NCBI RefSeq assembly: GCF_000020025.1
Contig: NC_010628.1
Coordinates: 2,970,001-3,002,000, forward strand
Direction of reading: 5' to 3'
DNA length: 32,000 bases
Source: Nostoc punctiforme PCC 73102
GTDB taxonomy: Bacteria > Cyanobacteriota > Cyanobacteriia > Cyanobacteriales > Nostocaceae
This document shows positions 576-24,524 of the stretch, one piece after another (position 1 is the first letter of the stretch; every line of letters starts with the position of its first letter). A program made the translations under genes and the position numbers. The notes under the pieces are model-generated. The model searched no databases, was not told where the DNA came from, and worked only from the letters and a program-made list of their open reading frames with translations.

Positions 576-679
576 TTAACCTACAATATATAGTGCTATA
601 TATTTGTAGTTAAAAATTTTAATAAACCACGAAGGCTTAAAAATCACAAAGCCGGACTTTTGCAAAACAACCGCATTTG

Positions 680-2626
680 ATGAGTAAATCAATTGTTTCA
701 ACAAAACGGCTCAGTAGCCAGTTAATGAACTGGTTGCTTGAAGAAGACCGACGAGAGAAGAAAGGGCCTTACCGCAAGGAAGAAGCACATCGCCAGCATT
801 CTTGGTGGCAGGTAATGTGTTTGACTGGTGTCGATTATTTCTCCACCCTTGGCTATCAACCTGGGATTGCAGCACTCGCAGCTGGCGCTCTTTCTCCTAT
901 CGCTACCCTGATTCTAGTTTTGCTGACGCTCTTTGGAGCATTGCCAATCTATCGGCGAATTGCTGCCGAAAGCCCTCATGGTGAAGGGTCGATCGCAATG
1001 TTAGAGCGTTTGCTCCCTTGGTGGCAAGGCAAATTACTTGTGCTATGCTTACTCGGCTTTGTGGCAACCGACTTTATTATTACCATTACGCTGTCGGCTG
1101 CTGATGCTACAGCCCATATCATCGAAAATCCCCTTACTCCACATTGGTTTCACGAGCAGACGATCGCAATAACCCTAATATTAGTTGCATTACTAGGCGC
1201 AGTTTTCTTGAGAGGTTTCCGAGAAGCGATTGGGATTGCAGTAGTCTTGGTAGCAACTTATCTGCTGTTAAACTTCATTGTCGTTAGCGTCGGTGTATTT
1301 CAAATTTTAACTCACCCAGGAGCGATCGCTAACTGGCAGACTGCACTTTTTGCCCGCCATTCCAATCCTTTTATCTTAATCGGTATATCTCTTTTGATAT
1401 TTCCCAAGCTAGCACTGGGATTATCAGGCTTTGAGACTGGCGTAACCGTGATGCCCCTTGTTAAAGGTAACAGCAGTGACACTCGCCAATATTCCAAAGG
1501 GCGGATTAGGAATACACGCAAGCTGCTCACCAGTGCTGCTCTGATTATGAGCTTCTTTTTGCTCACCACTAGTTTTATAACCACTCTACTGATTCCAGTG
1601 GCAGAATTTGCATCTGGGGGCAAAGCTAACGGACGCGCCCTTGCTTATTTAGCACATTTGCATCTAGGCAACGCCTTTGGCACAATTTACGATCTAAGTA
1701 CTATTTCCATTTTGTGGTTTGCAGGTGCATCTGCAATGGCGGGGCTGCTGAATATTGTGCCTCGCTACCTACCACGCTATGGTATGGCTCCTAATTGGGC
1801 ACGAGTAACGCGACCTTTGGTGTTAGTCTACACTGCGATCGCATTTGTTGTCACAATTATCTTTAGGGCAAATGTGGAAGCCCAAGGTGGGGCTTATGCA
1901 ACTGGTGTGCTTGTATTAATCACTTCAGCAGCCTTTGCTGTTACCTTATCAGCCCACCGTCACAGAGAGAAGCGGGCAAGACTGATTTTTGCTACTATTA
2001 CACTGTTATTTTTATATACCACTATTGTTAACATCATCGAAAGACCAGAGGGGATTAGGATTGCTGGGTTTTTCATCGGTGCAATCATTTTTACTTCCCT
2101 GGTTTCTCGTGTTTGGCGTTCAACGGAACTGCGAGCAGAGCGGATCGAAGTTGACGAACTTGCTGCCCAATTCCTTGCTGAAGAGAGCCAAGGAGCAATA
2201 CGACTGATTGCAAATCGGTTGAATAAGGGTGATGTCCTAGAGTATTTTATGAAAGAGAAAGAGGTACGCGAAGATAACCATATTCCGCCCAACGATCCAA
2301 TCCTTTTTCTAGAGATTCAGGTATCAGATGCTTCAGAATTTGCGGATATCATCAAAGTAAGAGGGGTGCAGGTTGGTGATTATCGCATCTTGCGGGCTGA
2401 GAGTGCAGCAGTCCCCAATGCGATCGCAGCTTTACTGCTGTATATTCGTGACCAAACAGGTAAGATTCCCCATGCTTACTTCGGCTGGGTTGAGGGAAAT
2501 CCCATACAATACTTACTGCGTTTTATCTTGTTTGGAGAGGGCGATATTGCTGTAGTCACCCGTGAAGTACTGCGTCGGGCTGAAAAGAATCCCCAGAGGC
2601 GACCTGGCGTTCATGTCGGGGGTTGA
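680..2626 (+). CDS. Polytopic permease, APC-superfamily-like, with a soluble C-terminal domain
   Basis: Long ORF with about 12 hydrophobic segments in the first ~470 aa, then a ~170-aa hydrophilic C-terminus. ATG at 680 is preferred to the in-frame TTG at 677. The family assignment is from recollection of similar cyanobacterial amino-acid permeases. Confidence 0.6.
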
Positions 2627-4071: not shown

Positions 4072-4998
4072 TTACCATAGTGCAGGTACTGATTGTCTTT
4101 TTAACTCATCATGTACTTGTAGAGCTATTTGTTTAGCCCATCCTGGTTTGTTGGTAGTTTTGTTCATTGCTATTTCGTTCATCATGGCTCTGGTTACATT
4201 TGTTTCAAGTCCTTTTATATTTACAGCTTGTTTAATCTGAACTATAGCAAAATCTACATATTGCTTCTCATGGCCTGCAAGGTATTTTGGTTCAGGAATA
4301 TTTCTTATAAATGCTTTTTCTAGTTCTCCAGAGTCAGAGAATTTATCAATATTCTTTTGTAACTGATTGCTAGATTCCTTTTGTATTTGATCCCAGTTTA
4401 TAGATGTTCCAGATTTTTTTATTGCTTCTACCGTATCAAATAATGTTTCTAAGTATGTTAATTTTGTTCTTATATCTATATATAAATTTAACATATTACG
4501 GTCAATTTCTTGCTTTTGCTGGGACTGTGCAGATGTAGCATAGCTGACTGGAATAATAGCAAAATTATTAGGAGCTTTTTGGTTAAATACACTGGGAGTT
4601 ATGTTATTGGGGCTTACGTTATTAGCTACTGAAACAAGTTGTTCACGCCAACCCTCAGCTTGTTTCATGTATCTATATGTGGGGAAATCTGCTAATTGAT
4701 TAGCTGTTATCCGAGAAGCTGCTTTCACATCGAATAAAGCATTCCAAACATATCGAAGCCCCATAGCTCCCTTTTCTACAAACTCTGCCTGAGCAGAAGC
4801 AATATCAGAGGAGTTTTTAATTTTATATCCTAATACTAATTCTTCAGGTTTTTTGTTTAAATCTACCTCTCCATTAATCCTATAAACTACATCAGCTTTA
4901 TTTTGACTCAATTCTATAGGAAGTGATGCATAAACCACAGTTACTGTACTAATACAAAACAAGGTTGCGCCTAAAAAATATCTGCTATACTTCAACAT
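4072..4998 (-). CDS. Secreted protein of unknown function
   Basis: 308-codon ORF with a signal-peptide-like start MLKYSRYFLGATLFCISTVTVVYA. The rest is Asn/Lys/Gln-rich with no domain I recognise. It lies 75 bp downstream of the 496-aa gene on the same strand. Confidence 0.65.
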   Translation of the reverse strand: MLKYSRYFLGATLFCISTVTVVYASLPIELSQNKADVVYRINGEVDLNKKPEELVLGYKIKNSSDIASAQAEFVEKGAMGLRYVWNALFDVKAASRITANQLADFPTYRYMKQAEGWREQLVSVANNVSPNNITPSVFNQKAPNNFAIIPVSYATSAQSQQKQEIDRNMLNLYIDIRTKLTYLETLFDTVEAIKKSGTSINWDQIQKESSNQLQKNIDKFSDSGELEKAFIRNIPEPKYLAGHEKQYVDFAIVQIKQAVNIKGLETNVTRAMMNEIAMNKTTNKPGWAKQIALQVHDELKRQSVPALW

Positions 4999-5073: not shown

Positions 5074-6564
5074 TTAATTCTCAACAGTCTTCGCATTACG
5101 CAAATAAATAACAAAACCCATAACAATTGCAAAAATCACACCTATTAGTAGATGAAACACCACATCAAATAAAAAACTTAAAGCAAAATTACTAGCCATA
5201 TTATCTTTGGAAATAGATAAATATTTCTCGCTAGGGCTAGGCATGACTGAAGTAGAAATACTGCTAACAGCTAAACCAGTACCTACCAGAGTGATCACTC
5301 GTTCTAGTTGTTGTTCCCGTTTTTGAGCTTTAGCTTCATTAGCTTGATCTAGTTCTGCCTTTTCAGCTTCCAGTTCAGCTCGGTCAATTGCTACCATACC
5401 CTGAACTGTATCAATTAACTGCTGAAATAACTTAGCACCAGGTTCTAGATGCTGACGATAAACTTGGATTTGAGCTTTATACTTATTGTGGGTTAGTTCT
5501 ATAAACTCTTTTAAGAAAGATAAATTATCATCTCCTAATTCACTCAGCTTCTTGAATCTAGATTCGTAATTCTTTATATTGGTTACGATTGTAGTTTCAT
5601 GATCTGCTAAATCCCGTAGGTGTTTGGAGTATTCAATTGCTTTTGTAGGCAATTTAGCCAGTAATTGCTTAAATTTTTTGAGTCGATCAGGACGAGATTT
5701 TGAAACAATAATCTGAAAGTCTTTGATATCTTCTTCTAGCTCGCTGTAGAGTTTTTCAGCTTCATAAAAACACCATTGACACTCATCATAGGCATATAAA
5801 ATTTTGTGGTAGGCGCAAAGTAACTCCAGTAACTGCTCAGACACCTCAGTTAGTTGTTCGTGAGTTGGAGTAGTGTCTGGATTTATGAACCAAACCAAGA
5901 TATGACATCGTTTGGATGGTTCTATTTCCAGCGTCTCATATACAAAAATTTGGTTGCCTAGTAGTTTACCTTCACCAGTTAGAAAAAGTTGAATTTGATT
6001 GTCAAGAAGTTGAGCAACACAATCATCTGCTAACCTCTGTAGCTGCTCATTATCAGTTGGCAGTAGGGGTTGGCCATACAGAAGTAAAGTTTGTCCTATA
6101 GATGCTTTAATGTGTTGAGGCAGCAAAAGTTTTTTTGGATTAAGTTGCTCTAGTTCCTCTAGAAAAATAGCGCCATTACACGAAAAAGTGAGGTCTACAG
6201 CATAGGTGTCATGAAGCCGAAATGGACAGAATGAACTGAGTTTTATATCTGCACTTCCTATTGGTGCAATGGGATTGCATTCTAACTCATCTTGATTCGA
6301 GCGAAGTAGGCTTTGCCGTTTAAGCGTTAATTGGTTCTCTAAGTTCGGCTGATATTGACCGTTTTGATAGCAGATTAGCTCTTGTTTAAGGTCTTGTAGC
6401 GCAGGAAACTGGAGAGTATTTCCTAGTTCTACCAACTGCTCCCAAAGTTGATCAGCTTTTGCTGAAGTTTGCTCTGGCCCCTGACTAATGTCAGTACGCA
6501 GATGGAAAGCATAGAGGGTAAGACTTGGGCTATATAGCCCCTGAGCTAAGGTTGTCTCGCTCAT
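5074..6564 (-). CDS. Unknown protein: ~230-aa globular N-domain, ~190-aa helical/coiled-coil region, two C-terminal TM helices
   Basis: 496-codon ORF. Heptad-like charged helices span aa ~235-420 (e.g. AELEAEKAELDQANEAKAQKREQQLER). Hydrophobic segments are VITLVGTGLAVSSISTSV (aa 423-440) and FALSFLFDVVFHLLIGVIFAIVMGFVIYL (aa 460-488). The gene starts 17 nt after the upstream gene. Confidence 0.8.
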   Translation of the reverse strand: MSETTLAQGLYSPSLTLYAFHLRTDISQGPEQTSAKADQLWEQLVELGNTLQFPALQDLKQELICYQNGQYQPNLENQLTLKRQSLLRSNQDELECNPIAPIGSADIKLSSFCPFRLHDTYAVDLTFSCNGAIFLEELEQLNPKKLLLPQHIKASIGQTLLLYGQPLLPTDNEQLQRLADDCVAQLLDNQIQLFLTGEGKLLGNQIFVYETLEIEPSKRCHILVWFINPDTTPTHEQLTEVSEQLLELLCAYHKILYAYDECQWCFYEAEKLYSELEEDIKDFQIIVSKSRPDRLKKFKQLLAKLPTKAIEYSKHLRDLADHETTIVTNIKNYESRFKKLSELGDDNLSFLKEFIELTHNKYKAQIQVYRQHLEPGAKLFQQLIDTVQGMVAIDRAELEAEKAELDQANEAKAQKREQQLERVITLVGTGLAVSSISTSVMPSPSEKYLSISKDNMASNFALSFLFDVVFHLLIGVIFAIVMGFVIYLRNAKTVEN

Positions 6565-6581
6565 TTCTTAAGTAGGAATAA

Positions 6582-6929
6582 TTATAATTGGGAAGAGGTT
6601 TTGCTTTGAGAAGATGATTTGCTTTGGCGGACGATGTTATCTAGCAAACCTTTAGCTTCTTTCGGTGTAATCCGAGTTGGAATCCCTCCTGCTCCACGTT
6701 CACTAGAGCTACTAATAGGCAGTTTCATCAGTGTATTGTGAATTTGAGGATGTTCTTCTACCCAAATAACTATTGCATCTGATATTTCTTCAATATCTTT
6801 TAGATCATCAGGTAAAGTTGATAGTAAATTCTCTAGAGATGCACGAACTTCTTCTGTAAAAAGTTCAGGATTATTTTGTGCAATGTAATTTAAGTCTTTG
6901 ATAATTTGTTCGTGAATGGATGAAGTCAT
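6582..6929 (-). CDS. Small acidic helical protein with a Ser-rich tail, unknown function
   Basis: 115-codon ORF. The CHAT gene stop TAA is followed directly by AGGAGTAAGCAA and then ATG (6927-6929), giving a canonical Shine-Dalgarno sequence 7 nt upstream. The C-terminal tail is SKSSSQSKTSSQL. Confidence 0.7.
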   Translation of the reverse strand: MTSSIHEQIIKDLNYIAQNNPELFTEEVRASLENLLSTLPDDLKDIEEISDAIVIWVEEHPQIHNTLMKLPISSSSERGAGGIPTRITPKEAKGLLDNIVRQSKSSSQSKTSSQL

Positions 6930-6941
6930 TTGCTTACTCCT

Positions 6942-9665
6942 TTATTGACCAATAGCACAGAATGCTGCCCAGTGATAAGGCTGACAAAATGGTTGTTCTT
7001 CATCTTGATGCTGAAGAAGAGAGCGTTCTAGATAGAATTTGTCAGTGCGCCTGATGGATAAATTTTCAATCCATTGCTCTAATTCCGTCCTCGTTGAAAA
7101 AAAGCTTCTTAGGTTAAATTGATCTATATAATTAAGGGACAAACTTTCAATCCACTGCTCAAGCGGCTGCTTAGTCCACTGCTCAATCGACTGCTTAAAT
7201 TGCGTTCTCGTTAAATCCCGCAACCATATCTGAGCTTTGTTGAGTGCAATGGCTACAGCACTTTCTTCTAGTTCGGAAGACTTATTCCAATGTTCTATTA
7301 AGTTTTCGTAAAATTTGATCATCAACAAGGCAGTAGAAATATCATTCACTTTCCAGAGACTAGCGACAATGCTGGGACTGCCTGCAAATAAGAAGCTACT
7401 AGGTAGACCAATGTATTCATCACTGATACTATCAGGATCTACCATTCCTGTTTCGCAGCCTGAGAGAGTGACAAGGCGGCATTTATCAAGAGTTAGTCCA
7501 AAAATTTCGGCTAGGGTAAGCCTTCCATCTTCTTTTTGTGTTTCAGACCCATGTTCGGCTAATAGTAGTGCTGATTCTAAAGGAGATTTCAGGTCAAACT
7601 CACCATGACAACAAAAGTGGCAACAATGAGATGAAGGTAGGTTTTCACTGACCTTGAGGGTAACTTCGCTGGCATCTGTCTCTTGCAATACATAATTAGA
7701 GGAAAAAAATGAGCGGATAACGTCAACTTCTAACTTGGCATATTTTAGGCTAGCCAAAACATTTTTGGGATTCTGAACAGCGAACAAATTGCTAAATTCA
7801 GTACGTTGCAGTCTTTGGCTTAATTGCAACAGTTGGCAACTAGGAGCATAACGCACACCACCTTCAAATTCGTCTAAAAGACATTTATTTTGTTCTTCGG
7901 ATAAAGGTAGAGCGTGTAGGGGTAACAAATGTAAGAAGCGGTGGGGGACTAATATCAATCGATTACAAGTTTCAGGAATATGAGATAGTATTTCTTCGAT
8001 ATGCAGAATCTTTGCTAATTCCCTAAACTGACTATTCAGTTTGCTTTGCCACTTTTCTTTATCTGTTGCATAGTAAGCTTGGAGGTATTGTTTACACAAA
8101 CTGATTAAACTGTCTAAATCTTCGGATGAGAATGTCAATACAAGAGGTATGTTTTTTATTTCTGACTCTTTATTATGCTTAACGATAAAAGTAATAATTT
8201 TACTATTAGTAATATACCACTCAATGAGTACAGTATCTTCTTTTACTAAAGCTTGCATCTCACTAAAAGAGATTTTATTAACTTTCTGAGTAAATTTAAA
8301 CGTTTTGTCTATGTAATTAATTTCTTTTAAAAGTTCATCTCGTTTCTTTCGCAATGATTTTAATTCTTCTTGGCTTTCTTTCTGCCGTTGTTTACTTGAA
8401 TTTTTTCTTCGCAATTCATCAAGTTCTTTGCAATGTCTTTCATAGTATTCTTGTTTCCCTTGTCTGTCATAGAAGTCTTCTTTGGGATATAAGTTTTTGG
8501 TTGTTAGTAGTTCAACAAGGTTGCGAGACTTACTAAGTTCAGCGTATTCCATAGCATCAGCAAAGTACTGAGGCTGATCTTGAGCTAGTTCTAAACAAAC
8601 TTCTATTATGTTTTGATAATAAGGATTCCATTCTTCAGCCAATTTTTGTTTATCTACTTCAATCCCAGAGCCAGAGATTATTTCTGCTCGGAGAGATTCT
8701 GCAATATTAATTGCAGCAGCAAAGGCTGTATGAGCTTTAGTGTAGTTTTCAGCATTTTGGTAGGCATATCCAATATTACCTTGAGTTGTTGCCCACTCAT
8801 GGGGAAAATCATCACTATTATAGATTTGTAAAGCTGATTCAAAAGCCTGAACTGCCAACTTTAAATTATCTTTTTTATATCCATTTTTTCTTTTAATATA
8901 AGCCATTCCAAGATTATTTTTGATTTTAGCCCATTGGCTGGGATATTGTTTATTAATTAATTTTTTTAGTACTGAATTGAAAATATGAATTGCTTGTTCT
9001 AAATTATCTTCCTTATTTCCTTGTTGTCTTTTAAGATAAGCATTAGCAAGATTATTTTGAGTTATAGCCCAATCGCTAGTAAATTTATCAACAGTGTAAA
9101 CTTGCAAAGCTAATTCAAAAGCCTGTATTGCTTTTTCTATATTATTTACATCTTCTTTTTCTAATTGCATATAAGCATAACCAATTTGATTTTGAGTCCA
9201 CGCCCAATTTTCAGGAAAACCTTCGCAACTGTAAACTTGCAAAGCTAATTCAAAAGACTTAATTGCTGCTTCTAAATTGTTATTCTTATCTCCTCTGAGG
9301 CGGTAACAGTAAGTAATGCCAAGATTAGTTTGTGTCTTAGCCCATTCGTTACTAAAACGTCCACCAATGTAAATTGGCAAAGCTGATTTGAAAGCTTCAA
9401 TTGCTAGTTCCAGGTTTTCCGCCGTCTCACCTCTTATCCGGCAATTGTAGGCACAACCAAGTTCATTTTGAATCCATGCCCAGTCTTGGGGAAAAGCCTC
9501 ACGGGTATAGAATTTTTCTTGTAGAAGTTTATACCCAGCAATAGCTATTTCTATATTACTGGCTTTTCTACCACAAGGAAAATACAAGAATAGCTGACTG
9601 AATACAGCAATAACTGAGGCAATCTTTTCTAAAACTTTTTGTAATATATGTTCCAACAAACTCAT
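6942..9665 (-). CDS. TPR-repeat / CHAT-domain caspase-like protease
   Basis: Six ~46-aa repeats follow the pattern FPxxWAxTQNNLGxAYxxRxxGxxxxNLExAIxAFExALQVY (aa ~55-330, DNA ~8680-9500). The C-terminal CHAT core has the His in HFCCHGEF (codon 7605-7607), the Cys in LSGCETG (codon 7455-7457) and the typical ending PYHWAAFCAIGQ. Confidence 0.9.
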   Translation of the reverse strand: MSLLEHILQKVLEKIASVIAVFSQLFLYFPCGRKASNIEIAIAGYKLLQEKFYTREAFPQDWAWIQNELGCAYNCRIRGETAENLELAIEAFKSALPIYIGGRFSNEWAKTQTNLGITYCYRLRGDKNNNLEAAIKSFELALQVYSCEGFPENWAWTQNQIGYAYMQLEKEDVNNIEKAIQAFELALQVYTVDKFTSDWAITQNNLANAYLKRQQGNKEDNLEQAIHIFNSVLKKLINKQYPSQWAKIKNNLGMAYIKRKNGYKKDNLKLAVQAFESALQIYNSDDFPHEWATTQGNIGYAYQNAENYTKAHTAFAAAINIAESLRAEIISGSGIEVDKQKLAEEWNPYYQNIIEVCLELAQDQPQYFADAMEYAELSKSRNLVELLTTKNLYPKEDFYDRQGKQEYYERHCKELDELRRKNSSKQRQKESQEELKSLRKKRDELLKEINYIDKTFKFTQKVNKISFSEMQALVKEDTVLIEWYITNSKIITFIVKHNKESEIKNIPLVLTFSSEDLDSLISLCKQYLQAYYATDKEKWQSKLNSQFRELAKILHIEEILSHIPETCNRLILVPHRFLHLLPLHALPLSEEQNKCLLDEFEGGVRYAPSCQLLQLSQRLQRTEFSNLFAVQNPKNVLASLKYAKLEVDVIRSFFSSNYVLQETDASEVTLKVSENLPSSHCCHFCCHGEFDLKSPLESALLLAEHGSETQKEDGRLTLAEIFGLTLDKCRLVTLSGCETGMVDPDSISDEYIGLPSSFLFAGSPSIVASLWKVNDISTALLMIKFYENLIEHWNKSSELEESAVAIALNKAQIWLRDLTRTQFKQSIEQWTKQPLEQWIESLSLNYIDQFNLRSFFSTRTELEQWIENLSIRRTDKFYLERSLLQHQDEEQPFCQPYHWAAFCAIGQ

Positions 9666-9715
9666 GCTTTTTACCTAAATAATAGCCACCCAAATTAGTA
9701 AAGACTAAGTAGGAT

Positions 9716-9754
9716 ATATAATTAATTAAAACTAACTATTTTAATTAATTATAT
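9716..9754. promoter_or_regulatory. Perfect 16-bp AT-only inverted repeat (ATATAATTAATTAAAA-7nt-TTTTAATTAATTATAT)
   Basis: Arms at 9716-9731 and 9739-9754, read directly. It lies 51-89 nt upstream of the CHAT start codon and about 165 nt downstream of the regulator gene stop. Confidence 0.35.
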
Positions 9755-9916
9755 GAATGCGATCGCCACCCCATCCAAGTATTTTGATCGCCTTTCTCAT
9801 GTTTGTACAAATGACAACTAAGTGAATATACTAAGCCTAGAAAATAAGCTCAACTTTGTCACTAGCGAAATGTTGGGCTTTAAACTTATCAAAATGTGAG
9901 GTCGAGAAGCTGCAAA

Positions 9917-10552
9917 CTACAGCCTGACAATCCCTCGATTCAGTGCAGTGACTAGGGCTTGAGTCCGATCGCTAACGTTCAACTTTCCGAAAATATTATT
10001 GGTATGGAACCTGACGGTACTCTCAGCAATATTGAGGACATTGCTAATCTGCTGGTTATTCTTACCCTTGGCGATCAGGCGCAGCACTTCCAACTCACGA
10101 TCGCTCAATTCCTCACTACTCATCCGTTCAGCTAGCTTGGCTGCTATAGTTGGCGGAATATACTTTTGTCCTTTATGAACAGTGCGAATCGCATCCAAGA
10201 GTTCGTTCGGTTCCGCACCTTTAAGGAGATAGCCCTTTGCACCAGCCCGCAATCCGCGATAGATATCTTCATCGCCATCAAAGGTAGTCAACACAACGAT
10301 TCGGGCGTGTTTAAACTTAGCACAGATGGCTGCGATCGCATCAGCACCTTCCATCTTCGGCATTCGCAAATCCATCAGCGCCACATCAGGTTGATGTTGG
10401 TGGAAAAGTTCTAACGCTTCTCGCCCGTCGCCAGCATGGCCGATTACAGTCATATCTGACTCACATTGAAGAAACATTGTTAAAGCTTGTCCCAAGATGG
10501 GATGATCGTCAGCAAGTAGGATACGAATGACATTAGATTGACTCATAATCAT
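9917..10552 (-). CDS. Response regulator, NarL/LuxR family (REC + HTH)
   Basis: The receiver domain shows LLADDHP...ALMDLRMPKMEG...KGYLLK. The C-terminal LuxR-type HTH shows LSDRELEVLRLIAKGKNNQQISNVLNIAESTVRFHTNNIFGKL. The gene abuts the kinase stop codon. Confidence 0.9.
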   Translation of the reverse strand: MIMSQSNVIRILLADDHPILGQALTMFLQCESDMTVIGHAGDGREALELFHQHQPDVALMDLRMPKMEGADAIAAICAKFKHARIVVLTTFDGDEDIYRGLRAGAKGYLLKGAEPNELLDAIRTVHKGQKYIPPTIAAKLAERMSSEELSDRELEVLRLIAKGKNNQQISNVLNIAESTVRFHTNNIFGKLNVSDRTQALVTALNRGIVRL

Positions 10553-13339
10553 TTACTCTCGGTAGACTAACACTGAAACTTCTGTTCCCTGTCCTGGCGA
10601 ACTCTGAATTGTTAGTTTTGCCCCGATGCATTCAGCCCGTTCGCTCATGACTAAAAGCCCAAAGCTGTTGATAACAGATACACTGGCGATGTCAAACCCT
10701 TGTCCATCATCTTTGATTCGCAAGCTGCACTGGCTTTCTTGATACGCCAGTTCAATTTGGATTTCTCCAGCTTGGGCATATTTGAAGGCATTGGTTAATG
10801 CTTCTTGTCCAATGCGGAGTAGGTTATTTTCAACATCTGGAGACAAGGGGTATATCTCGCCTATTAATTGGCAGACAATATGTGTATTGCTAGGGGAAAA
10901 CATCTGTGTTGCGAAGCGATTGAGAGCATTAAAAATGTTGCCGTCCTCCAATAATTGAGAGCGTAATGCTTTGATCGAACGGCGTGCTTCAGTTAGCCCA
11001 GAATGAGCTAAGTCTCGCCCTGCTTTGATTAATTTCTGTGCTACTTCTATATCTGTCGTCAGTTTTCGTGAGGCGGTATCTAAGTGGACAATAACAACTG
11101 TGAAGGCTTGTGCTAAAGTATCGTGAATTTCCTGTGCCAAGCGGTTACGTTCTGCCAATACAGTTGCTTCTTCAGCCTGCTTACGACTAGTGATATCCTG
11201 TATTGCAGCCATCCTGATGGTACGCCCACGATATGACATGACTCTGGCTCTGATCTCAGCCGGAAATGTGCTTCCATCCTTACGCAGACAAACGGTTTCA
11301 TAAATTCCTTCATCTCCTGAGCGAATCTTCTGCATCACTTGTTCTCGATATTCAGGAGCAGTAAAATCCATGACACGCATACCAAGCAACTCCGAAAGTT
11401 CATAACCAAACATCTCAGCACAGGTTTGGTTAGTATCTAAAAGTATGCCTTGTTCGGTAATAGCGATCGCTTCAAATGTTGCCTCTGCCAACAGCCGAAA
11501 TCGCGTCTCGCTTTCTAGAAGTGCTACTTCTGCCTGCTTGCGTTCAGCGATTTCTCGTTGTAGCTCCAGGGTACGTTGAGTAACCTGTTGCTCTAAAACG
11601 GAATTATAATCAGCTAGGATCTTCTCTGCTTTTTTGCGTTCGGTAATATCAATACAAACAGTGAGCGCATATATTACTTTCCCTGATTCATCAAAAATTG
11701 GGGTGCTTAAAACTTCTATAGGGATAGTTTTATTAGGGTGGCGAAACTCCATATTATCAATGTGGACTGTTTTACCTACCAAAGAATACATAATTGGTAG
11801 TTCATCAGTAGGGTATAAGTAGTCAGTTTCAGCTAGATAAATTTGATAATATTCTGCTATCTTTTCGGGTTTGATAGATGGCAATAAGTCTACGCTGATT
11901 AATTTTTGCACAGCTCGATTATTATAGTAAATTTCCCCATACGGATCGTTTATCGAAATAGCTACAGGCACAGCATCAAGAAATTGCTTCAGGCGGGTTT
12001 CACTCTGCAATAAAGCCTTATTTAAATCCTGCATTTCCGAAAATTTTGCTTGGAGTTGATCCGCCATATTATTAAATGATCTGGCTAATTCCCCCAATTC
12101 ATCGGAACGCTCTATTTTTATTCTTTTTTCCCATTCACCTTGAGCAAGTGCTAAAGCTGATTTTTTTAAAGCTAGAACTGGTTCAGCAATCCACCGTAAA
12201 ATCAAAACACCGACAGCTACAGCCACTATCAAAGCAACAATACACAGCACAATAGTGGTGCGGGTATTAGCATTAATTTCTTCCATGAAGTCATTTTCTG
12301 GGACGACTACCACAATTAACCAGTCAAGTCCCCGATTATCTTGGAAGGGTAAAACTCGAATAAACTGCCGCTTACCATCTATCGAAAAATATAATTGCTG
12401 TGAGCTATTAATTGACTTAAATTCATTAAATTTACTTTTTAAATATTTACTAGTGCATTGTGTTTTTTTATCCTTACTATCTATAGCCAAAAATGGCTTA
12501 ATTCTATTTTCTGCTAATTGTGTTTTAAAATTATTTGAGTGGAAAGGCTTTTCATTAGTTGAGGTTGCTACCAATCTTCCAGAATGACGCTCAACAATAA
12601 AACTTATTCCTGTTTTACCAATTTTTAAATTTTGCAGAAAAGTGCCAATTTTAGATAAGTTTAAATTTGAGAGTAATACACCTTGCAAATTTCCCTGTTT
12701 ATCGTAAGCAGGCTGACTAGCAGCGATGTACAAAGCAATGCCAGAATTATGAGGATAAATTTCACTCCAAACTGGTCTTTGTTTTGCTATCGCTTTGTTA
12801 TACCAATTACGTCTTTGAGTATCATAAGGTTTGCCAAAATCCTTTATTCCCGTGCGTGTGCTTTGTTTATTAGTAGTATAAGTCCGCAAATTATACTTAG
12901 TTGATTTACCAGATGCTCTGATTGTCAAAGAGCCATCAGGAAATATTTCTGCTGAAATAAACTCTTTATTCGTATTTGCAAATCCAATTAGACTTACTTG
13001 ATTAAATACTTCTAACTGGTCAAAAAAATAATGTTCTAAGACGGTCAAATCTTGTACATCTAATTGACCAAGTTTAATAGCATTAGCATTATTCTGATTA
13101 ATTTGTTGGGGAGTTTCAAGAAAAGTATGCAGATTCTGCTGAACACGCTGGCTAATTTCACTTAGTAGCCGTGTGGCAATATTATTTACTGCTTTTTGCC
13201 CATTTTTGAATGAGAGATAACCTGTTAAACTCGCCACCGCTAAAATTTGCAGAATAAAGGGAATAATCAGAACGGTTCGCAGAGAAGGTTTAACGGGAAG
13301 AGAAAGAAAGTATTGAAGATATGATATTTTGTTAAACAA
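10553..13339 (-). CDS. Sensor histidine kinase: periplasmic Cache-like domain, HAMP, two PAS, HisKA_3, HATPase
   Basis: Two TM segments bracket a ~320-aa extracytoplasmic domain. HAMP is marked by SDELGELARSFNNMADQL and PAS regions by the DITERK and DITSRK ends. The H-box is ERNRLAQEIHDTLAQ and the ATPase carries the DDGQGF and G-rich motifs. Confidence 0.9.
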   Translation of the reverse strand: MFNKISYLQYFLSLPVKPSLRTVLIIPFILQILAVASLTGYLSFKNGQKAVNNIATRLLSEISQRVQQNLHTFLETPQQINQNNANAIKLGQLDVQDLTVLEHYFFDQLEVFNQVSLIGFANTNKEFISAEIFPDGSLTIRASGKSTKYNLRTYTTNKQSTRTGIKDFGKPYDTQRRNWYNKAIAKQRPVWSEIYPHNSGIALYIAASQPAYDKQGNLQGVLLSNLNLSKIGTFLQNLKIGKTGISFIVERHSGRLVATSTNEKPFHSNNFKTQLAENRIKPFLAIDSKDKKTQCTSKYLKSKFNEFKSINSSQQLYFSIDGKRQFIRVLPFQDNRGLDWLIVVVVPENDFMEEINANTRTTIVLCIVALIVAVAVGVLILRWIAEPVLALKKSALALAQGEWEKRIKIERSDELGELARSFNNMADQLQAKFSEMQDLNKALLQSETRLKQFLDAVPVAISINDPYGEIYYNNRAVQKLISVDLLPSIKPEKIAEYYQIYLAETDYLYPTDELPIMYSLVGKTVHIDNMEFRHPNKTIPIEVLSTPIFDESGKVIYALTVCIDITERKKAEKILADYNSVLEQQVTQRTLELQREIAERKQAEVALLESETRFRLLAEATFEAIAITEQGILLDTNQTCAEMFGYELSELLGMRVMDFTAPEYREQVMQKIRSGDEGIYETVCLRKDGSTFPAEIRARVMSYRGRTIRMAAIQDITSRKQAEEATVLAERNRLAQEIHDTLAQAFTVVIVHLDTASRKLTTDIEVAQKLIKAGRDLAHSGLTEARRSIKALRSQLLEDGNIFNALNRFATQMFSPSNTHIVCQLIGEIYPLSPDVENNLLRIGQEALTNAFKYAQAGEIQIELAYQESQCSLRIKDDGQGFDIASVSVINSFGLLVMSERAECIGAKLTIQSSPGQGTEVSVLVYRE

Positions 13340-17072: not shown

Positions 17073-18389
17073 ATGAATATCTTATCCAGCCAAAAATTTC
17101 GCTTCACAGTAGGTTGTGCTGCCTTATTATTTGTCAGTTTAGCCAGTAGCCATCTATATACTCAGTCAAAAAATAAACAGCTAGTCCAACAAAATCAGTC
17201 CTTTACTCAGCAAGAAAATTCTGCCCCAGTTCCATCACAAATTTCCCTCACCTCAAATTTCCAAAATCCTTTTGTTGCTCAACAAATATCTGATGAAATT
17301 ATCGATAAGCAAAACGCTTTTTTACCTCAGCAGAATTTGCTAGCCGCATCTGCACCCTATCCAGTTGTCGATGAGTTCAAAAAATATAAATTTAGTATTA
17401 ATGGCAGCCAAGTTGTTAGCCCAGGAAAACTGCCAAGTAGTAAGGTTAACTTCAATCAAGGAGATTTATTAACTGTTCTAGTTAATACTAGAAAATATTT
17501 TCAAGATTACTCTTCAGAAGACCCAGATATTCTCCGTACAGGAATGCTTGCGACTCAAGGAGTAACTATACCAGATGTTCTCAACACTTTGAATTTCATG
17601 ATTGCTGTATTAAAGGAGGATATTGCTAATAATCGAGCTACTCGTTTGCAAGATCCTAACTTTATCAATACAAATTTTCGAGTTATTAAATGGTCTCCTT
17701 ATAACCCAAAGAATAAACAGCAAAAACAATTACGAATTACCAAATATGCTGTCTTTACTCATCCCGGTTCTCGGGAGAAAACCTCTACTTTTAATACACC
17801 AATTTACAGCTTAAAAGACAACGCTAATAACGATAAATTCTATACAAAATACACCAAGCAGGATGTGTTATCAGGTATTTATGAACCAGGTGGTAAAGAA
17901 TTTGGAAAAGTTACCAGTCTCGCTTATCTAACCAGAAATGGTTTAGAAGAAGCAATTATGGAAGGAACAATATTAATTAATTTTAAAGATGGTTATAAGG
18001 CATTTTTTAATGTAGACAGAAATAATGGAATGTCTTATATTCGCGGATTGAAGGCAACAGCACAAAAACGTTATTGGTATTTTAGAGAAGTTGATGCTAT
18101 TAAAGGCTATGGATATAAAATAGATGCAAAAATTTCTATCAAACCCGGAGTTACTTTTGCAGGAGATGTTTTAAATATTGGTTTAGGTAAAGTGGTTGTG
18201 ATTGAACATACTCAAGGTGGTCGCAAACATCTACGAATGGGAGTTATCGCTGATACAGGTGGAGCCTTTTTACCCAATCTTTATCAACTCGATTTTTTGG
18301 CAGGAGTTTTTAATAATAAAAAAGAATTTGGGCAGAATGTTAGCCAATTACCTGACTATGCTACAGCATATTTTTTAGTCAAAAAGTAA
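17073..18389 (+). CDS. MltA-like lytic murein transglycosylase (3D-domain-like C-terminus), secreted
   Basis: Signal/anchor GCAALLFVSLASS. The C-terminal MGVIADTGGAFLPNLYQLDFLAG resembles the D-x-GGAI...D-x-F-x-G motif of MltA/3D domains. The gene lies 38 nt after murG. Confidence 0.5.
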   Translation: MNILSSQKFRFTVGCAALLFVSLASSHLYTQSKNKQLVQQNQSFTQQENSAPVPSQISLTSNFQNPFVAQQISDEIIDKQNAFLPQQNLLAASAPYPVVDEFKKYKFSINGSQVVSPGKLPSSKVNFNQGDLLTVLVNTRKYFQDYSSEDPDILRTGMLATQGVTIPDVLNTLNFMIAVLKEDIANNRATRLQDPNFINTNFRVIKWSPYNPKNKQQKQLRITKYAVFTHPGSREKTSTFNTPIYSLKDNANNDKFYTKYTKQDVLSGIYEPGGKEFGKVTSLAYLTRNGLEEAIMEGTILINFKDGYKAFFNVDRNNGMSYIRGLKATAQKRYWYFREVDAIKGYGYKIDAKISIKPGVTFAGDVLNIGLGKVVVIEHTQGGRKHLRMGVIADTGGAFLPNLYQLDFLAGVFNNKKEFGQNVSQLPDYATAYFLVKK

Positions 18390-19912: not shown

Positions 19913-20752
19913 TTACAGCATGGGAAGCACGCGGGGACGAGATCCGGTCGGGAAGGCTGCGTCGATTCGATCGAGTTCGGTTTGGGTCAGATTGAGTTCC
20001 CCGGCTCCCGCGTTTTCAGCGGCGTGTTTGGGGTTGGATGCTTTGGGGATTGCGAAGAGCGAGGAATGCCGCACCAGAAATCGGAGCGCGACTTGGCGAG
20101 GGGTGGCGTTATGGGCGGCGGCGATTTCCTGTAGTACGCGACCTGCGGTTGTGCGCGAGCTGGGAAAATCCCCATGACCGAACGGGCTGTATGCGACTAC
20201 GGCGACCCCATGCTTCTCACACCAGGGGATCACAGCGTGTTCGATCGCTCTCTGTCTCAAATGGTAAAGGACTTGATTACAGACGAGAGAACCCTCGCCA
20301 GCGATCTTCTGGACTGCTTCAAGGTCAGGCACATCGAAGTTGCTCACGCCCCAGCAGAGAATCTTCCCCTCGTGCTGAAGCTGCTCGAAGGCAGCGATCG
20401 TCTCCTCCAGTGGGTGTTGACCGCGCCAGTGCAACAGATAAGAGTCCAGCCGATCGGTATGAAGTCGAGCGAGCGATTTCTCGCAGGCTATGATCGTCCC
20501 TCTCCGAGAAGCATTTCCAGGAAGAACCTTGGAAACCAGGAAAACCCGATCGCGTCGTCCAGCGATCGCCTCGGCGACCACCTCCTCGGCACTGCCGTAC
20601 ATCTCCGCCGTGTCGATATGGGTCATGCCGAGATCGAGTCCTTGGCGCAAAGCGGCGATCGCAGAGGCGCGGTCACCGTTGTCGATGTACCAGGTTCCTT
20701 GACCGATCGCTGCCACCTCGCGCTGCGTGGAACCAAATCGATGCTGTTCCAT
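19913..20752 (-). CDS. Aldo/keto reductase
   Basis: Motifs GTWYI, HIDTAEMYG, LVSKV, LDSYLLHW, GVSNF, AYSPFG and IPKASNPKHAAEN; AGGAGG lies upstream of the ATG. The gene is very GC-rich: the hand-counted line 20101-20160 has 40/60 G+C. Confidence 0.9.
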   Translation of the reverse strand: MEQHRFGSTQREVAAIGQGTWYIDNGDRASAIAALRQGLDLGMTHIDTAEMYGSAEEVVAEAIAGRRDRVFLVSKVLPGNASRRGTIIACEKSLARLHTDRLDSYLLHWRGQHPLEETIAAFEQLQHEGKILCWGVSNFDVPDLEAVQKIAGEGSLVCNQVLYHLRQRAIEHAVIPWCEKHGVAVVAYSPFGHGDFPSSRTTAGRVLQEIAAAHNATPRQVALRFLVRHSSLFAIPKASNPKHAAENAGAGELNLTQTELDRIDAAFPTGSRPRVLPML

Positions 20753-20781
20753 ACCTGTCCTCCTGATTAACGCTCCGAGTC

Positions 20782-20966
20782 GAATGGCACTAAGAAAAGG
20801 GAAAATCGTTGAGGCAGCAGGGGTGCAGAGGAGCGGAGGAGCAGGGGAGAAAGAAGAAGTTTAAGGCATACGAACGGATATTTAGAAATTCCCCCCTGCA
20901 CCCCTGCACCCGTGCCCCTCTGCAATCCTTACACTGCGTACCCTTCAGCTTAACTTAGTGCCATTC
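20782..20966. mobile_element. 185-bp MITE nested in the cargo operon
   Basis: Perfect 13-bp terminal inverted repeats GAATGGCACTAAG (20782-20794) and CTTAGTGCCATTC (20954-20966). They are flanked by an 11-bp direct repeat CGCTCCGAGTC (20771-20781 and 20967-20977). The interior forms a G-rich/C-rich imperfect hairpin. Confidence 0.7.
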
Positions 20967-20978
20967 CGCTCCGAGTCC

Positions 20979-21541
20979 TCACACCATCTGCCGTACCTGC
21001 CCTGCATGGCTGAACAGCTCGATCATTTCCCGGTTGAAGGCTGGGATGTCGTCTGGCTTGCGGCTCGACACGAGGTTGCGATCAACTACAACTTCCCGAT
21101 CTACCCACTGGGCACCTGCGTTCTGGAGATCGGTCTTGAGCGACGGCCACGAGGTGAGCCGCCGTCCGCGCACCACATCTGCCTCGATCAGAGTCCAAGG
21201 TCCGTGGCAGATCACTGCTACCGGCTTGTCAGTATCGAAGAAGGACTTTATAAACTCGATCGCCTTAGCTTTAGTCCGAAGTTGATCTGGATTGGCAACA
21301 CCACCGGGAAGCAGGAGGGCATCATAGTCGGCTGGATTTACTTTATCGAGGGGGACATGTACCGGGAAAAATCCCCTTTGTCATAATGGTTCCAGCCCTG
21401 AACGCGATCGCTCTTAGGTGAAATGATGTGGGTTTGAGCACCTGCTGACTCAAGGGCTTGCTTGGGTTGAGCCATTTCAACTTGCTCAAAGCCATCTGTA
21501 ACCAGAATGGCAACTTTCTTATTTGTGAGATCTTCTGTCAT
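20979..21541 (-). pseudogene. DJ-1/PfpI family protein (glyoxalase III / protease-like), single frameshift
   Basis: The N-terminal KKVAILVTDGFEQVEMAQP...WNHYDKGD and the remainder FPVHVPLDKVNPADYDALLLPGGVANPDQL...AVICHGPWTLIEADV... are in different frames. The shift maps to the T5C3 tract on the coding strand (plus-strand GGGAAAAA at 21364-21371). Confidence 0.8.
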
Positions 21542-21595
21542 CTCTACCTCCTAAAGTGTTGGCTAGACTTGGTTTTTTCGTGTTCTTATGGGGTT

Positions 21596-22774
21596 TTAGG
21601 CAGCCTGACCTGGCTTGAGCACGATCTTGATACAGTTGTCCTTCTTGTGCTTGAAAATTTCGTAGCCGTGCGGTGCTTGTTCTAGTGGCAGACGATGGGT
21701 GATTACAAAAGATGGGTCGATATCGCCATTTTGGACGCGATCGAGTAACGGGCGCAAGTACTTATGAACGTGCGTTTGTCCCATTTTAAATGTTAAGGCT
21801 TTGTTCATGGCAGCACCCATCGGTATCTTGTCTACAAAGCCGCCGTAAACACCAGGAATTGACACAGTGCCACCTTTGCGACAGGCAACAATCACTTGCC
21901 TTAGGGCAGTGGGTCGGTCGGTTTCCATACGCACGGCTTGCTTTACCTGGTCGTAAAACGCATCTGGACCCGTACCGTGGGCTTCCATTCCCACAGCATC
22001 CATGCAAGCATCTGGACCGCGCCCACCGGTCATATCTTTGAGGGCTTCACCAACTTCAACTTCCTCATAGTTAAGGACTTCTGCCTTGCCGTCTTTCGCC
22101 ATCTGTAGGCGTTCGGGAACTCGATCGATAGCAATGACGCGCTCGGCACCTAGCATATATGCACTTCTAATGGCAAACTGTCCGACTGGACCGCAGCCCC
22201 AGATCGCTACAGTATCTCCTGGCTGGATATCGCAGTTTTCCGCTGCCATATAGCCAGTGGGGAAGATATCCGTCAGAAACAGGACTTGTTCGTCTGTTAG
22301 TCCATCAGGAATCTTGAATAAACCGACATCGGCAAAGGGAACGCGGGCATATTCAGCTTGACCTCCAGCATAGCCACCCATCATATGGGAGTAGCCGAAA
22401 AGACCAGATGGGGAATGACCCATGAGTTTTTCCGCTATCCAAGCGTTGGGGTTGGAGTTATCGCACAGCGACCACAAATCTTTTTGACAAAAGAAACAGG
22501 AGCCGCAGGAAATGGTAAAGGGAACGACAACGCGATCGCCTATCTTCACATTCTTGACGGCACTGCCTAGCTCGACCACCTCCCCCATAAATTCATGACC
22601 AAGGATGTCGCCCTTTTCCATCGTGGGGATGTAACCGTCATAAAGATGTAAATCAGAACCGCAAATCGCCGTTGACGTGATTTTAACAATCGCATCACGC
22701 GGATTGATGATTTTTGGATCGGGTACTGTATCAACTCGTACATCGTTAGCGCCGTGCCAGCAAAGTGCTTTCAT
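21596..22774 (-). CDS. Zinc-dependent alcohol dehydrogenase, formaldehyde-dehydrogenase-like subfamily
   Basis: Start [20 protein letters not shown], catalytic-Zn motif ICGSDLH...GHEFMGEV, structural-Zn motif CGSCFFCQ, and NAD-binding motif IWGCGPVG. Confidence 0.9.
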
Positions 22775-22779
22775 AATCT

Positions 22780-23283
22780 TTAACCTCCCTTTGGTTGACC
22801 TTCTGTTGTTGCAATCTCGCCTGCTTCCATCAGCATTTTGAAGCGGCGTAAATCATCTCCAATCTGCTGTTCTGGTTCTTCGCCGAAGAGTTTGGCAAAC
22901 ACAGATGCAATCGCACCACCAGGCGGGTTATATTCCGTGACGACCTTTACCTCTGTACCGCGATTGGCGGGTGCTGGCTGGAAGCGGACAGAACCAGAGT
23001 TATCAACATCTGCACCTTCAACCGAAGCCCAAGCAATCAATTCGTTTTCCCGATCTTCAATGATGTCTGCATCCCATTCAACACTTCCACCTAACACCCC
23101 ACTGGTCGTCCAGTGCGTTCGCGTAGCGTGTCCGGAGGACTCTCGCTTATTATTGTCTACTTTTACATCTTTGAGATGCTTCATGAAGCGCGGCAAGTTC
23201 CCAAAGTTATGCCAAAAGCGGTAGAGTTCCTCTGCTGGTTTGTTAATCGTTACCGTCTTTTCAACTTTAATTGGTTGGCTCAT
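22780..23283 (-). CDS. SRPBCC (cyclase/dehydrase, START-like) family protein
   Basis: [37 protein letters not shown]...[18 protein letters not shown]...VRFQPAP is typical of SRPBCC proteins. The start is set at the internal ATG (23281-23283) rather than the far-upstream start of the ORF track. Confidence 0.8.
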
Positions 23284-23858: not shown

Positions 23859-24524
23859 TTAACTTGGCTCATTCAAATAGGATAAATATGTATTTGCCCA
23901 AATCGCAGCTTGAGTGCGATCGCGCAAATTCAGCGTGTTTAAAATATTTGTCACATGATTTTTTACTGTCCCCTCAGAAATGTAGAGTTCTTGAGCAATT
24001 TCTCGGTTACTAGCGCCTGTAGCAATTAACCGTAAAACCTCTTTTTCTCTAGGAGTAAGTTCATTTAAAGTAGATGGTACAGGTGTTGAATGGATTGGTG
24101 TACCATTAGAAAACTGAGTTAACAGCTTTTTAACTATACCTGGGCCTAATTGGGTATATCCTTTATAAACAGCACGAATCGCAACAGCTAATTCTTCTGA
24201 GGGCGTATCTTTTAATAAATAACCCATTGCCCCATTTTGTAATGCTGCTGATACATATTCATCATCATCAAAAGTCGTCAGTACTAAAATTTTAGTTTTA
24301 GAAAAACGTTTTTGAATTTCTTTCGTTGCTGCAACTCCATCCATAATAGGCATTCTGATATCTAGCAATACTACATCTGGTTGAAATTCAGCAACCAAAT
24401 TAATCGCCTGTTCGCCATTTTCTGCTTCTCCCACGATCTCTAAATCTGATTCTAATTCTAATAATGCTCTTAATCCTTGACGAATTAAACCTTGGTCATC
24501 TACTAACAATACTTTAATCATCAT
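23859..24524 (-). CDS. Response regulator, NarL/LuxR family
   Basis: Receiver motifs VLLVDDQ...[12 protein letters not shown]...GYLLKD and the Lux[44 protein letters not shown]. The start overlaps the kinase stop as ATGA. Confidence 0.9.

Follow-up and report, generated by a model that had tools for sequence, protein, structure and literature searches.

Three adjacent minus-strand genes at positions 5074-9665 of the 32,000-nt stretch of Nostoc punctiforme PCC 73102 DNA analysed here (the window) form a conserved, tightly coupled functional unit, which recurs as a conserved mobile cassette of filamentous bacteria. This 4.6-kb cassette of three genes encodes a TPR-CHAT protease of 907 amino acids (aa), a small, acidic 115-aa partner (p115) and p496, a protein of 496 aa in which an N-terminal part of about 395 residues, called the N-module here, is followed by two transmembrane (TM) helices. 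The three proteins very probably work together, and the cassette is probably a conflict or programmed-death system, a defence or cell-death role that we infer solely from architecture and distribution.

The protease gene lies at 6942-9665 (ACC80971 / WP_012408965), the p115 gene at 6582-6929 (ACC80970 / WP_012408964) and the p496 gene at 5074-6564 (ACC80969 / WP_012408963). All three are on the minus strand, with 12 nt between the CHAT and p115 genes and 17 nt between the p115 and p496 genes, just as the original prediction, made from the letters of the window, had described them. The Shine-Dalgarno sequence that it had placed at the CHAT stop codon was also found, as an AAGGAG at 6937-6942 (-) that overlaps the last base of the stop codon and is followed 7 nt on by the ATG of p115. 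Tight spacing is seen in other loci too, where the CHAT-to-p115 gaps are 3-12 nt, and in many loci the p115 stop overlaps the start of the N-module gene by 4 nt. The window proteins are identical to ACC80971, ACC80970 and ACC80969 of N. punctiforme PCC 73102, of which the first is annotated as a CHAT/TPR protein and the other two as hypothetical proteins, and a literature search on these accessions returned no paper that mentions them.

A scan of 185,579 species-representative genomes, one per species, gave 151 loci with tblastn-confirmed relatives of p496, of which 78 were examined; their open reading frames (ORFs) were searched with the window proteins and with an iterated hidden Markov model (HMM) of p115, the flanks extending for about 8 kb on each side. 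Synteny was counted in the 45 loci in which the N-module carries the two-helix membrane unit, as it does in the window (TM-type loci), and in which the upstream DNA extends for 3 kb or more. In 38 of these 45 loci the same strand bears a CHAT gene whose end lies under 1.5 kb upstream, and a p115 homologue is present in 40 of them. The synteny of the two partners with CHAT genes, on which the original prediction had staked its case in advance, thus holds, and TPR-CHAT genes stand in synteny with both families in cyanobacteria, Beggiatoaceae and Desulfobacteraceae alike. Since the arrangement recurs in dozens of genomes, it is far beyond chance. MoxR, vWA and iSTAND were found within the approximately 8-kb flanks of none of the 45 TM-type loci (0/45), and none of them occurs in the 32-kb window.

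Moreover, every pair among CHAT, p115 and the N-module was found fused in some genomes. TPR-CHAT proteins with p115 at their C-terminus are encoded in loci L024-27 and L037-38, and over 100 Oscillatoriales proteins have the same architecture. Likewise, p115 stands at the C-terminus of three N-module proteins, P0085 (N-module-bDLD1-p115, with the bDLD1 domain confirmed), P0059 and P0075. P0094 is a fusion of the N-module with CHAT, and in L051 a TPR-CHAT gene and p115 still precede it.

Filamentous bacteria make up almost all of the hosts (Nostocales, Oscillatoriales, Ca. Marithrix and Ca. Parabeggiatoa), which further include two Desulfobacteraceae metagenome-assembled genomes. Multiple divergent copies per genome were observed, with three loci in Aetokthonos and two each in Floridaenema, Scytonema and Caldora. 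Complete cassettes are also carried by plasmids, one being a mobilizable Pseudanabaena plasmid and the other a conjugative Nostoc plasmid, on which the cassette lies between IS630 and IS110 copies; the N-module of this Nostoc plasmid is just 27% identical to that of the window protein, with all three parts of the cassette kept.

The TPR-CHAT protease and its small acidic partner

The CHAT domain (Pfam PF12770; E=1.2e-50, 173 bits against a cutoff of 24) occupies residues 550-907 of the 907-aa protein (6945-8018, -), and the repeat part covers about residues 1-340 (8646-9665, -), with TPR/SNAP-type repeats recognised at residues 127-324 by the Pfam models TPR_12, TPR_10 and SNAP. An alignment of 66 CHAT domains was made from the window protein and 65 CHAT ORFs of at least 600 aa located anywhere in the related loci. 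In this alignment the catalytic His687 (motif CCHG, codon 7605-7607, -) and the catalytic Cys737 (motif LSGCETG, codon 7455-7457, -) each stand in a column kept in 63 of the 66 sequences, and the dyad is kept in 63 of 66; the intact His/Cys dyad and its codon positions had been called correctly from the outset. Type III-E Csx29 CHAT domains are the sole solved sequence relatives of the window CHAT (PDB; E~1e-8, residues 568-790). Since the NCBIfam Csx29 model scores the window protein at E=7e-20 and 71.5 bits against a cutoff of 300, the protease is related to Csx29 but falls outside that family.

Compared with the nearest orthologue, identity is 84% in the TPR region, 99% in the CHAT domain and 95-97% in the partners, and the faster divergence of the TPR part fits a sensor role. 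An N-terminal membrane anchor on the CHAT protein was considered and dismissed, as the hydrophobic stretch at residues 11-29 scores just 1.64 and is internal or absent in orthologues. Two further features of the protein were noted. The CHAT gene contains a 12- or 24-nt tandem repeat at 7149-7198 (residues ~823-839), corresponding to a duplicated ~27-aa 'LEQWIExLS...' segment; this repeat-bearing segment lies in an insertion near the CHAT C-terminus, a region poorly conserved in L002 and L003 (38-41% identity). In addition, many cassette-linked TPR-CHAT proteins have a conserved N-terminal segment in common, M[ND]E[EQ]R..AY.QLI..LL.C..GEE..IL.A...L.D.G, examples being found in L025 (235-3165), L037 (4085-7072), L065 (4858-7614) and L072 (4564-7620), and the window protein is without it.

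By its translation, p115 contains 17 acidic residues against 11 basic ones and is acidic as first described; Pfam, NCBIfam and PADLOC scans gave no match to it. Its iterated family HMM recovered 64 matching ORFs in about 60 of the 78 examined loci. The family is small, comprising 170 clusters at E<=1e-3 among 1.84 billion representatives (HMMER), mostly stand-alone proteins of 105-135 aa. The family alignment begins with an acidic conserved N-terminal part (LF..., LP.D...EEIS..I..W), which is followed by a conserved Gly-rich loop (consensus x-G-x-[GA]-[GN]; R78-G-A-G-G82 in the window, 6684-6698, -) set between two conserved segments; after the loop come the short conserved segment K[ED]hhxN and a low-complexity Ser-rich tail. 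The loop is, as we infer, a candidate protease-accessible site. An 18-nt tandem repeat was observed in the tail at 6588-6626, encoding the Ser/Gln/Lys-rich SKSSSQSKTSSQ; the tail is low-complexity and variable across the family.

Outside the CHAT and N-module proteins, p115 is also found fused behind a protein combining a lipase and a GTPase, behind a bDLD1 domain and behind a DUF2887 protein. The lipase protein, encoded at L011 6474-9470 directly after vWA, consists of Lipase_3, an AIG/septin-like GTPase and a C-terminal p115 domain, indicating that p115 can be attached to effectors besides CHAT. In these domain arrangements, p115 behaves like a portable coupling domain. Its identification as a Death-like/EAD adaptor was rejected, hhalign against a locally built bDLD1 profile giving a probability of 0.5%, and since the p115 HMM matches neither the window CHAT protein nor p496, p115 is not a homotypic adaptor inside the cassette.

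The N-module of p496 and its C-terminal slot

Family alignments and an AlphaFold2 (AF2) model divide the N-module of p496 into an alpha/beta domain (residues 1-232; 5869-6564, -) and a helical bundle (residues 233-395; 5380-5868, -). Behind it lies a variable 'effector slot' (residues 396-496 and the stop codon; 5074-5379, -), which comprises the charged continuation of a stalk helix, TM1, a short loop and TM2. The residues W41, H118, D119, Y121, D124, N142, T159, H221 and W225 of the alpha/beta domain are invariant or near-invariant, and K254, Y312, N332, Y333, F354 and Q365 are conserved in the helical bundle. TM1 (~421-441; 5242-5304, -) is weak, with a hydropathy of 1.63, and TM2 (~460-488; 5101-5187, -) is strong, with 2.9. 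In the family alignments TM1 is conserved (VGxGLxxSxIS) and rich in Gly, Ser and Thr, and TM2 has a conserved His.

Homology with the non-TM, effector-fused paralogues stops at about residue 395 of p496, and elsewhere the slot holds bDLD1+Trypsin_2, bDLD1+Metallophos (calcineurin-like), PNP_UDP_1, CHAT or bDLD1+p115. The alignments thus describe p496 as a constant N-module with an exchangeable effector, the two-TM unit being the putative effector of this version. Since the C-terminal slot is occupied by recognised effector domains in the paralogues (trypsin, PNP-family, metallophosphoesterase and CHAT), the original proposal that the two-TM protein acts on the membrane is a reasonable reading. 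Some PNP-family domains are experimentally shown immune effectors with ATP-nucleosidase activity (10.1101/2023.01.24.525353); the PNP-family slot domain occurs in P0084 and is a candidate member of their clade. No Pfam family matched the N-module in the 26 members scanned, even at E<=1. For p496 itself, Pfam, NCBIfam and PADLOC scans gave nothing meaningful and no model for residues 1-395, and the p496-family profile retrieved just one spectrin-repeat match among PDB sequences (E=0.017).

The AF2 monomer model of p496, built with 80 homologues, reached a predicted local distance difference test (pLDDT) value of 91.6 and a predicted template-modelling score (pTM) of 0.81. It places the alpha/beta domain at residues 9-226, followed by two helices (235-287 and 291-341), a third (349-440), 90 residues long, that enters TM1, and a last helix at 456-495 that holds TM2. 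The globular N-domain and the two C-terminal TM helices of the original prediction are therefore retained, and what had been taken for a long coiled-coil is modelled instead as a helical bundle with a stalk into TM1. When the full-length model was compared with the PDB by Foldseek, the top 12 matches were all CorA/Mrs2 magnesium channels (E 1e-4 to 1e-2), with probabilities up to 0.99 and 275-400 aligned columns, yet with template-modelling scores (TM-scores) of just 0.12-0.29. In the viral structure library BFVD, the top match of p496 was a phage CorA-type 'Mg2+ transporter'. Modelled alone (pLDDT 91.3, pTM 0.89), the alpha/beta domain gave no confident fold match in the PDB by Foldseek, the best being a Pol-beta-type nucleotidyltransferase (NTase) fold at E=0.055, with weak VOC matches as well and no CorA.

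The GMN motif is absent from p496 and from the family consensus, MPSPSEKY being what follows TM1, and sequence profiles of the p496 family found no CorA among PDB chains or in Pfam. True CorA membership of p496 was rejected on account of the absent GMN motif and an N-domain that is not recovered, and for these two reasons CorA is kept only as an architectural resemblance. The N-domain was also rejected as an active NTase or VOC enzyme, since the matches are weak and local (E>=0.055, 75-105 columns) and the catalytic signatures are absent; it is without the Pol-beta signature hG[GS]...[DE]x[DE]...[DE], its conserved acidic residues D119 and D124 are spaced i, i+5, and there is no GS...DxD. A gasdermin or Csx30 as partner was likewise discarded, as no such fold or family was matched: there was no gasdermin among the top 50 listed Foldseek PDB matches of either model and no Pfam or PADLOC match. 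A literature search found no paper tying CHAT to CorA-like effectors.

The paralogues carrying bDLD1 connect the N-module with the vWA-MoxR-iSTAND ternary systems, which have been described computationally and predicted to act against invaders (Kaur, Burroughs, Iyer & Aravind 2020, PMC7159879; Kaur et al. 2021, PMC8195603). Among the 12 bDLD1-type loci of the N-module family with enough upstream DNA, 9 contain iSTAND, MoxR and vWA. The order in bDLD1 loci is one to four TPR-CHAT genes, N-module-bDLD1-effector, sometimes a gene of ~360 aa, bDLD1-iSTAND, MoxR and vWA, often with further TPR-CHAT genes downstream of vWA. The cassette had been called orphan; since its N-module is common to the effector genes of vWA-MoxR-iSTAND systems, it is not fully so. 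A locally built bDLD1 HMM run with --max gave nothing significant on the window proteins (best E=0.26), and Pfam found no bDLD1 in them either.

In five of the loci (L008, L009, L020, L036 and L079), two to four head-to-tail TPR-CHAT paralogues were seen directly upstream of the bDLD1-type N-module gene. The downstream TPR-CHAT copies in L006, L009 and L036 are without the His/Cys dyad in the alignment, at least two of these three ORFs being cut at the locus end. The conserved gene of ~360 aa, which has no Pfam match, always follows N-module-bDLD1-trypsin, and it precedes bDLD1-iSTAND where the downstream DNA is known (L079 12362-13444; L008 10398-11489; L015 2988-4079; L016 3564-4655; L020 10419-11501; L014 10434-11522; L043 10382-11473). 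It may be an undescribed trypsin-associated component.

Surroundings of the cassette in the window

Upstream of the cassette, a gap of 251 nt (9666-9916, -) between the CHAT gene and a LuxR-type response-regulator gene is the probable promoter region; it contains a single sigma-70-like match at 9853-9825, and promoter-like matches were not above shuffled expectation. The window contains two separate pairs of a HisKA_3 histidine kinase and a LuxR-type response regulator, at 9917-13339 (-) and 23859-25786 (-). The kinase of the 9917-13339 pair has Cache, HAMP and PAS domains, and this pair adjoins the upstream end of the cassette in the window, a position that among the relatives it keeps only in L001 and L002, with a fragmentary match to the response regulator in L003. 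Regulation of the cassette by this two-component pair was considered and set aside on account of such narrow co-location. Downstream of p496, at a distance of 75 nt, p308 (4072-4998, -) encodes a protein of 308 aa with a signal-peptide-like N-terminus and no family match. It was rejected as a fourth cassette gene, because it is kept downstream only in the three closest relatives, L001-L003, which share a wider synteny of histidine kinase, response regulator and YkuD.

The original prediction had seen no CRISPR effector, NTPase or gasdermin-sized gene; the scanned ORFs of the window and a tandem-repeat scan likewise revealed no cas gene, NTPase, gasdermin or CRISPR array. The region 20001-23000 is an outlier in G+C content (0.50-0.58 vs 0.32-0.47 elsewhere in the window) and encodes an aldo/keto reductase, a Zn-dependent alcohol dehydrogenase and a polyketide-cyclase/SRPBCC protein; this block may have been acquired horizontally. 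Three large ORFs had no Pfam match at E<=1e-4, namely 28380-31994 (-) of 1204 aa, 677-2626 (+) of 649 aa and 17073-18389 (+) of 438 aa. A tandem repeat of 8 or 24 nt, TCCCCTGC, lies at 31252-31331 within the ORF of 1204 aa.

Interpretation and comparison with known systems

On balance, we lean towards the cassette being a conflict module of three components that stands alone and brings about abortive infection or programmed cell death, of the type found in multicellular bacteria, through a protease-gated membrane effector. In such a module, the TPR-CHAT protein would be both sensor and activator, its fast-evolving TPR array recognising the trigger and its caspase-like His/Cys site serving as the switch. 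The executioner would be p496, whose regulatory, oligomerising N-module would keep the C-terminal two-helix membrane unit inactive, and p115 would couple CHAT to p496, either as a cleavable inhibitor or adaptor or as a docking piece. CHAT-dependent proteolysis of p115 at the Gly loop, or of p496 itself, would free the membrane unit, which would then form or open an oligomeric pore of CorA-like layout, collapsing the membrane potential so that the cell would be killed or silenced. The signalling direction, the proteolytic step and its substrate, the formation of a pore and the biological role are all proposed from comparison, and that CHAT cleavage of p115 or p496 is the switch is put forward only tentatively. 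Regarding direction, the slot in L051 already holds CHAT, yet TPR-CHAT and p115 precede it, which suggests that the upstream protease is the activator and not the terminal effector.

Several observations weigh against this explanation. TM1 of p496 is just weakly hydrophobic (1.63), and the likeness to CorA is weak, with TM-scores of 0.12-0.29, an isolated alpha/beta domain that retrieves no CorA and no GMN motif. The invariant polar residues of the N-module are its main unexplained feature; H118, D119, Y121, D124, N142, T159, H221, K254 and N332 resemble a ligand-binding or catalytic pocket, and suggest one, more than they do a passive pro-domain. In p115, the residue preceding the conserved Gly of the loop is variable (R, L, I, A or Q). 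The window and its nearest relatives hold the cassette at a conserved chromosomal site amid housekeeping and regulatory genes. Moreover, an uncontrolled census of 87 flanking proteins from 26 loci was heterogeneous and mostly housekeeping, with four C5-methylases, five Uma2, three AAA_21 and two PLDc_2 proteins as defence-type genes (of the restriction-modification or abortive-infection type); this is a mere sprinkling and weak evidence. A search of the IMG/VR viral contigs found no relative of the cassette, and a phage origin was rejected on that ground. Finally, none of the models in PADLOC-DB v2.0.0 matched p115, p496, p308 or the CHAT protein (E<=0.1).

The signal could also flow in the reverse direction, with the membrane-anchored N-module protein sensing a ligand, an ion or a membrane perturbation by means of its conserved polar pocket and p115 recruiting and activating TPR-CHAT, which as the terminal effector would cleave cellular or viral proteins. 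Such a flow would suit the position of p115 at the C-terminal 'output' end of N-module-bDLD1 proteins, a position that CHAT can hold as well, the attachment of p115 behind the CHAT C-terminus in over 100 proteins and the many invariant polar residues of the N-module; in addition, the cytoplasmic domains of CorA-type proteins are ligand and ion sensors. We nevertheless regard it as unlikely, since the domains that also occupy the slot include typical terminal effectors (trypsin, PNP-family, metallophosphoesterase), and since L051 keeps its upstream TPR-CHAT though the slot holds CHAT, which an upstream activator fits better. In addition, the TPR array is the fastest-evolving part, as is expected of a sensor, and 9 of the 12 bDLD1 loci adjoin iSTAND-MoxR-vWA, so that a separate predicted sensor, iSTAND, is already there.

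With the same logic of a protease acting on a membrane protein, the cassette could instead be a developmental or physiological device and not an antiviral one, used in the lysis of single cells (necridia, hormogonium release) or in stress-induced death. Hosts that are almost entirely filamentous, multicellular bacteria would be expected on this account, which also agrees with the conserved chromosomal position beside a Cache/PAS histidine kinase and a LuxR regulator in the Nostoc relatives, and with the lack of relatives on viral contigs and of a PADLOC model match. However, the cassette has a patchy occurrence with several divergent copies in one genome, some strains carry it on plasmids and between insertion sequences, its effector slot is polymorphic and TPR-CHAT genes are duplicated in tandem. 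Since these are hallmarks of conflict systems and not of a fixed developmental pathway, we find a developmental device rather improbable. A role in ion homeostasis and not in conflict, in which p496 would be a divergent CorA-family cation channel with its turnover regulated by CHAT and p115, would account for CorA/Mrs2 being the best full-length structural matches in two independent libraries and for the same layout, but appears highly improbable to us. MPSPSEKY and not GMN follows TM1, the alpha/beta domain alone retrieves no CorA, sequence profiles show none in PDB chains or Pfam, soluble enzymes replace the TM unit in many paralogues and the p496 gene is obligatorily linked to a caspase-like protease.

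The protease-gated membrane effector that we favour has parallels in several known systems. Bacterial gasdermin systems with adjacent caspase-like or CHAT proteases were reportedly described by Johnson et al. in 2022. They resemble the cassette in that the gene of a clan-CD protease lies beside that of a membrane-acting protein that is presumably inactive until proteolysis, and the outcome would in either case be abortive infection. In contrast to the gasdermins, which are beta-sheet pore formers with a short inhibitory tail, p496 has two alpha-helices behind a 395-aa module; the cassette also has a third, small component, and cleavage within it is a proposal only. In the type III-E Craspase, the TPR-CHAT protein Csx29 cleaves Csx30. 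The architecture of TPR and CHAT is the same here, the CHAT domain can be aligned to that of Csx29, and the target of the protease would again be the product of a neighbouring gene. However, the window has no Cas7-11/gRAMP gene or CRISPR array, and p115 and p496 are unrelated to Csx30, Csx31 and RpoE (NCBIfam, Foldseek). CorA-family immune membrane effectors have a precedent in the CorA effectors associated with type III CRISPR systems. In its modelled layout p496 follows the CorA/Mrs2 order, in which a cytoplasmic alpha/beta domain is succeeded by long helices, by a stalk leading into TM1 and, after a short loop, by TM2, and it differs from these proteins in the low TM-scores (0.12-0.29), the absence of GMN, an N-domain that alone has no CorA match and the absence of sequence-profile kinship.

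The closest parallels are in gene content. As regards vWA-MoxR-iSTAND systems, the bDLD1-trypsin and bDLD1-metallophosphoesterase effectors carry the same ~395-aa N-module as p496, the effector gene is directly preceded by one to four TPR-CHAT genes, and the phyletic bias to multicellular bacteria is the same. In contrast, the window and all 45 TM-type loci are without MoxR, vWA, iSTAND and bDLD1, the output of TM-type loci is the two-TM unit, and p115 is located between the protease and N-module genes. The two-gene EACC1- and EACC2-caspase systems (PMC7159879, PMC8195603) similarly combine a constant module, highly variable C-terminal domains and a caspase-superfamily peptidase, are partially membrane-associated and occur in cyanobacteria and other multicellular bacteria. 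In these, however, caspase and constant module form one fusion, which the variable part follows, whereas the protease here is a separate TPR-CHAT protein, and the constant module of the cassette is a different and larger one, alpha/beta and helical, with no Pfam match.

The combination of polymorphic effectors with a constant module, a caspase-like protease and a multicellular bias is already known (PMC7159879, PMC8195603), as are protease-licensed membrane effectors from the gasdermin systems. The specific trio of a stand-alone TPR-CHAT protein, p115 and an N-module with a two-TM unit of CorA-like layout has no model in the libraries searched and is not mentioned in the text of PMC7159879 and PMC8195603. 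A more specific version of the favoured explanation, in which p115, cut at its Gly loop by activated TPR-CHAT, gates an oligomeric pore of CorA-like layout, either through its loss or through a fragment that acts as a peptide ligand in the N-module pocket, would give a gasdermin-independent wiring from protease to membrane death, and we offer it as a speculation that is more likely wrong than right by some distance. If it were true, the same N-module 'receiver' would license trypsin, ATP-nucleosidase, phosphoesterase and CHAT effectors in paralogous systems, and the N-module with p115 would be a new general device of multicellular bacteria for coupling a protease to an effector.

Animal pyroptosis and a few bacterial defence systems depend centrally on caspase-like proteases that set off membrane death. 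To our knowledge, only two bacterial wiring schemes have been worked out, the cleavage of gasdermins and that of Csx30 by Craspase. The cassette would add a third, with a receiver module of 395 aa that accepts interchangeable effectors and a coupling protein of ~115 aa, and since it is compact, recurrent and also found on plasmids, it is directly testable by transplantation. Cyanobacteria have very many stand-alone TPR-CHAT genes, most of them unexplained, and the cassette also ties these to the large, experimentally untouched vWA-MoxR-iSTAND systems, to which it would be a simpler experimental entry point.

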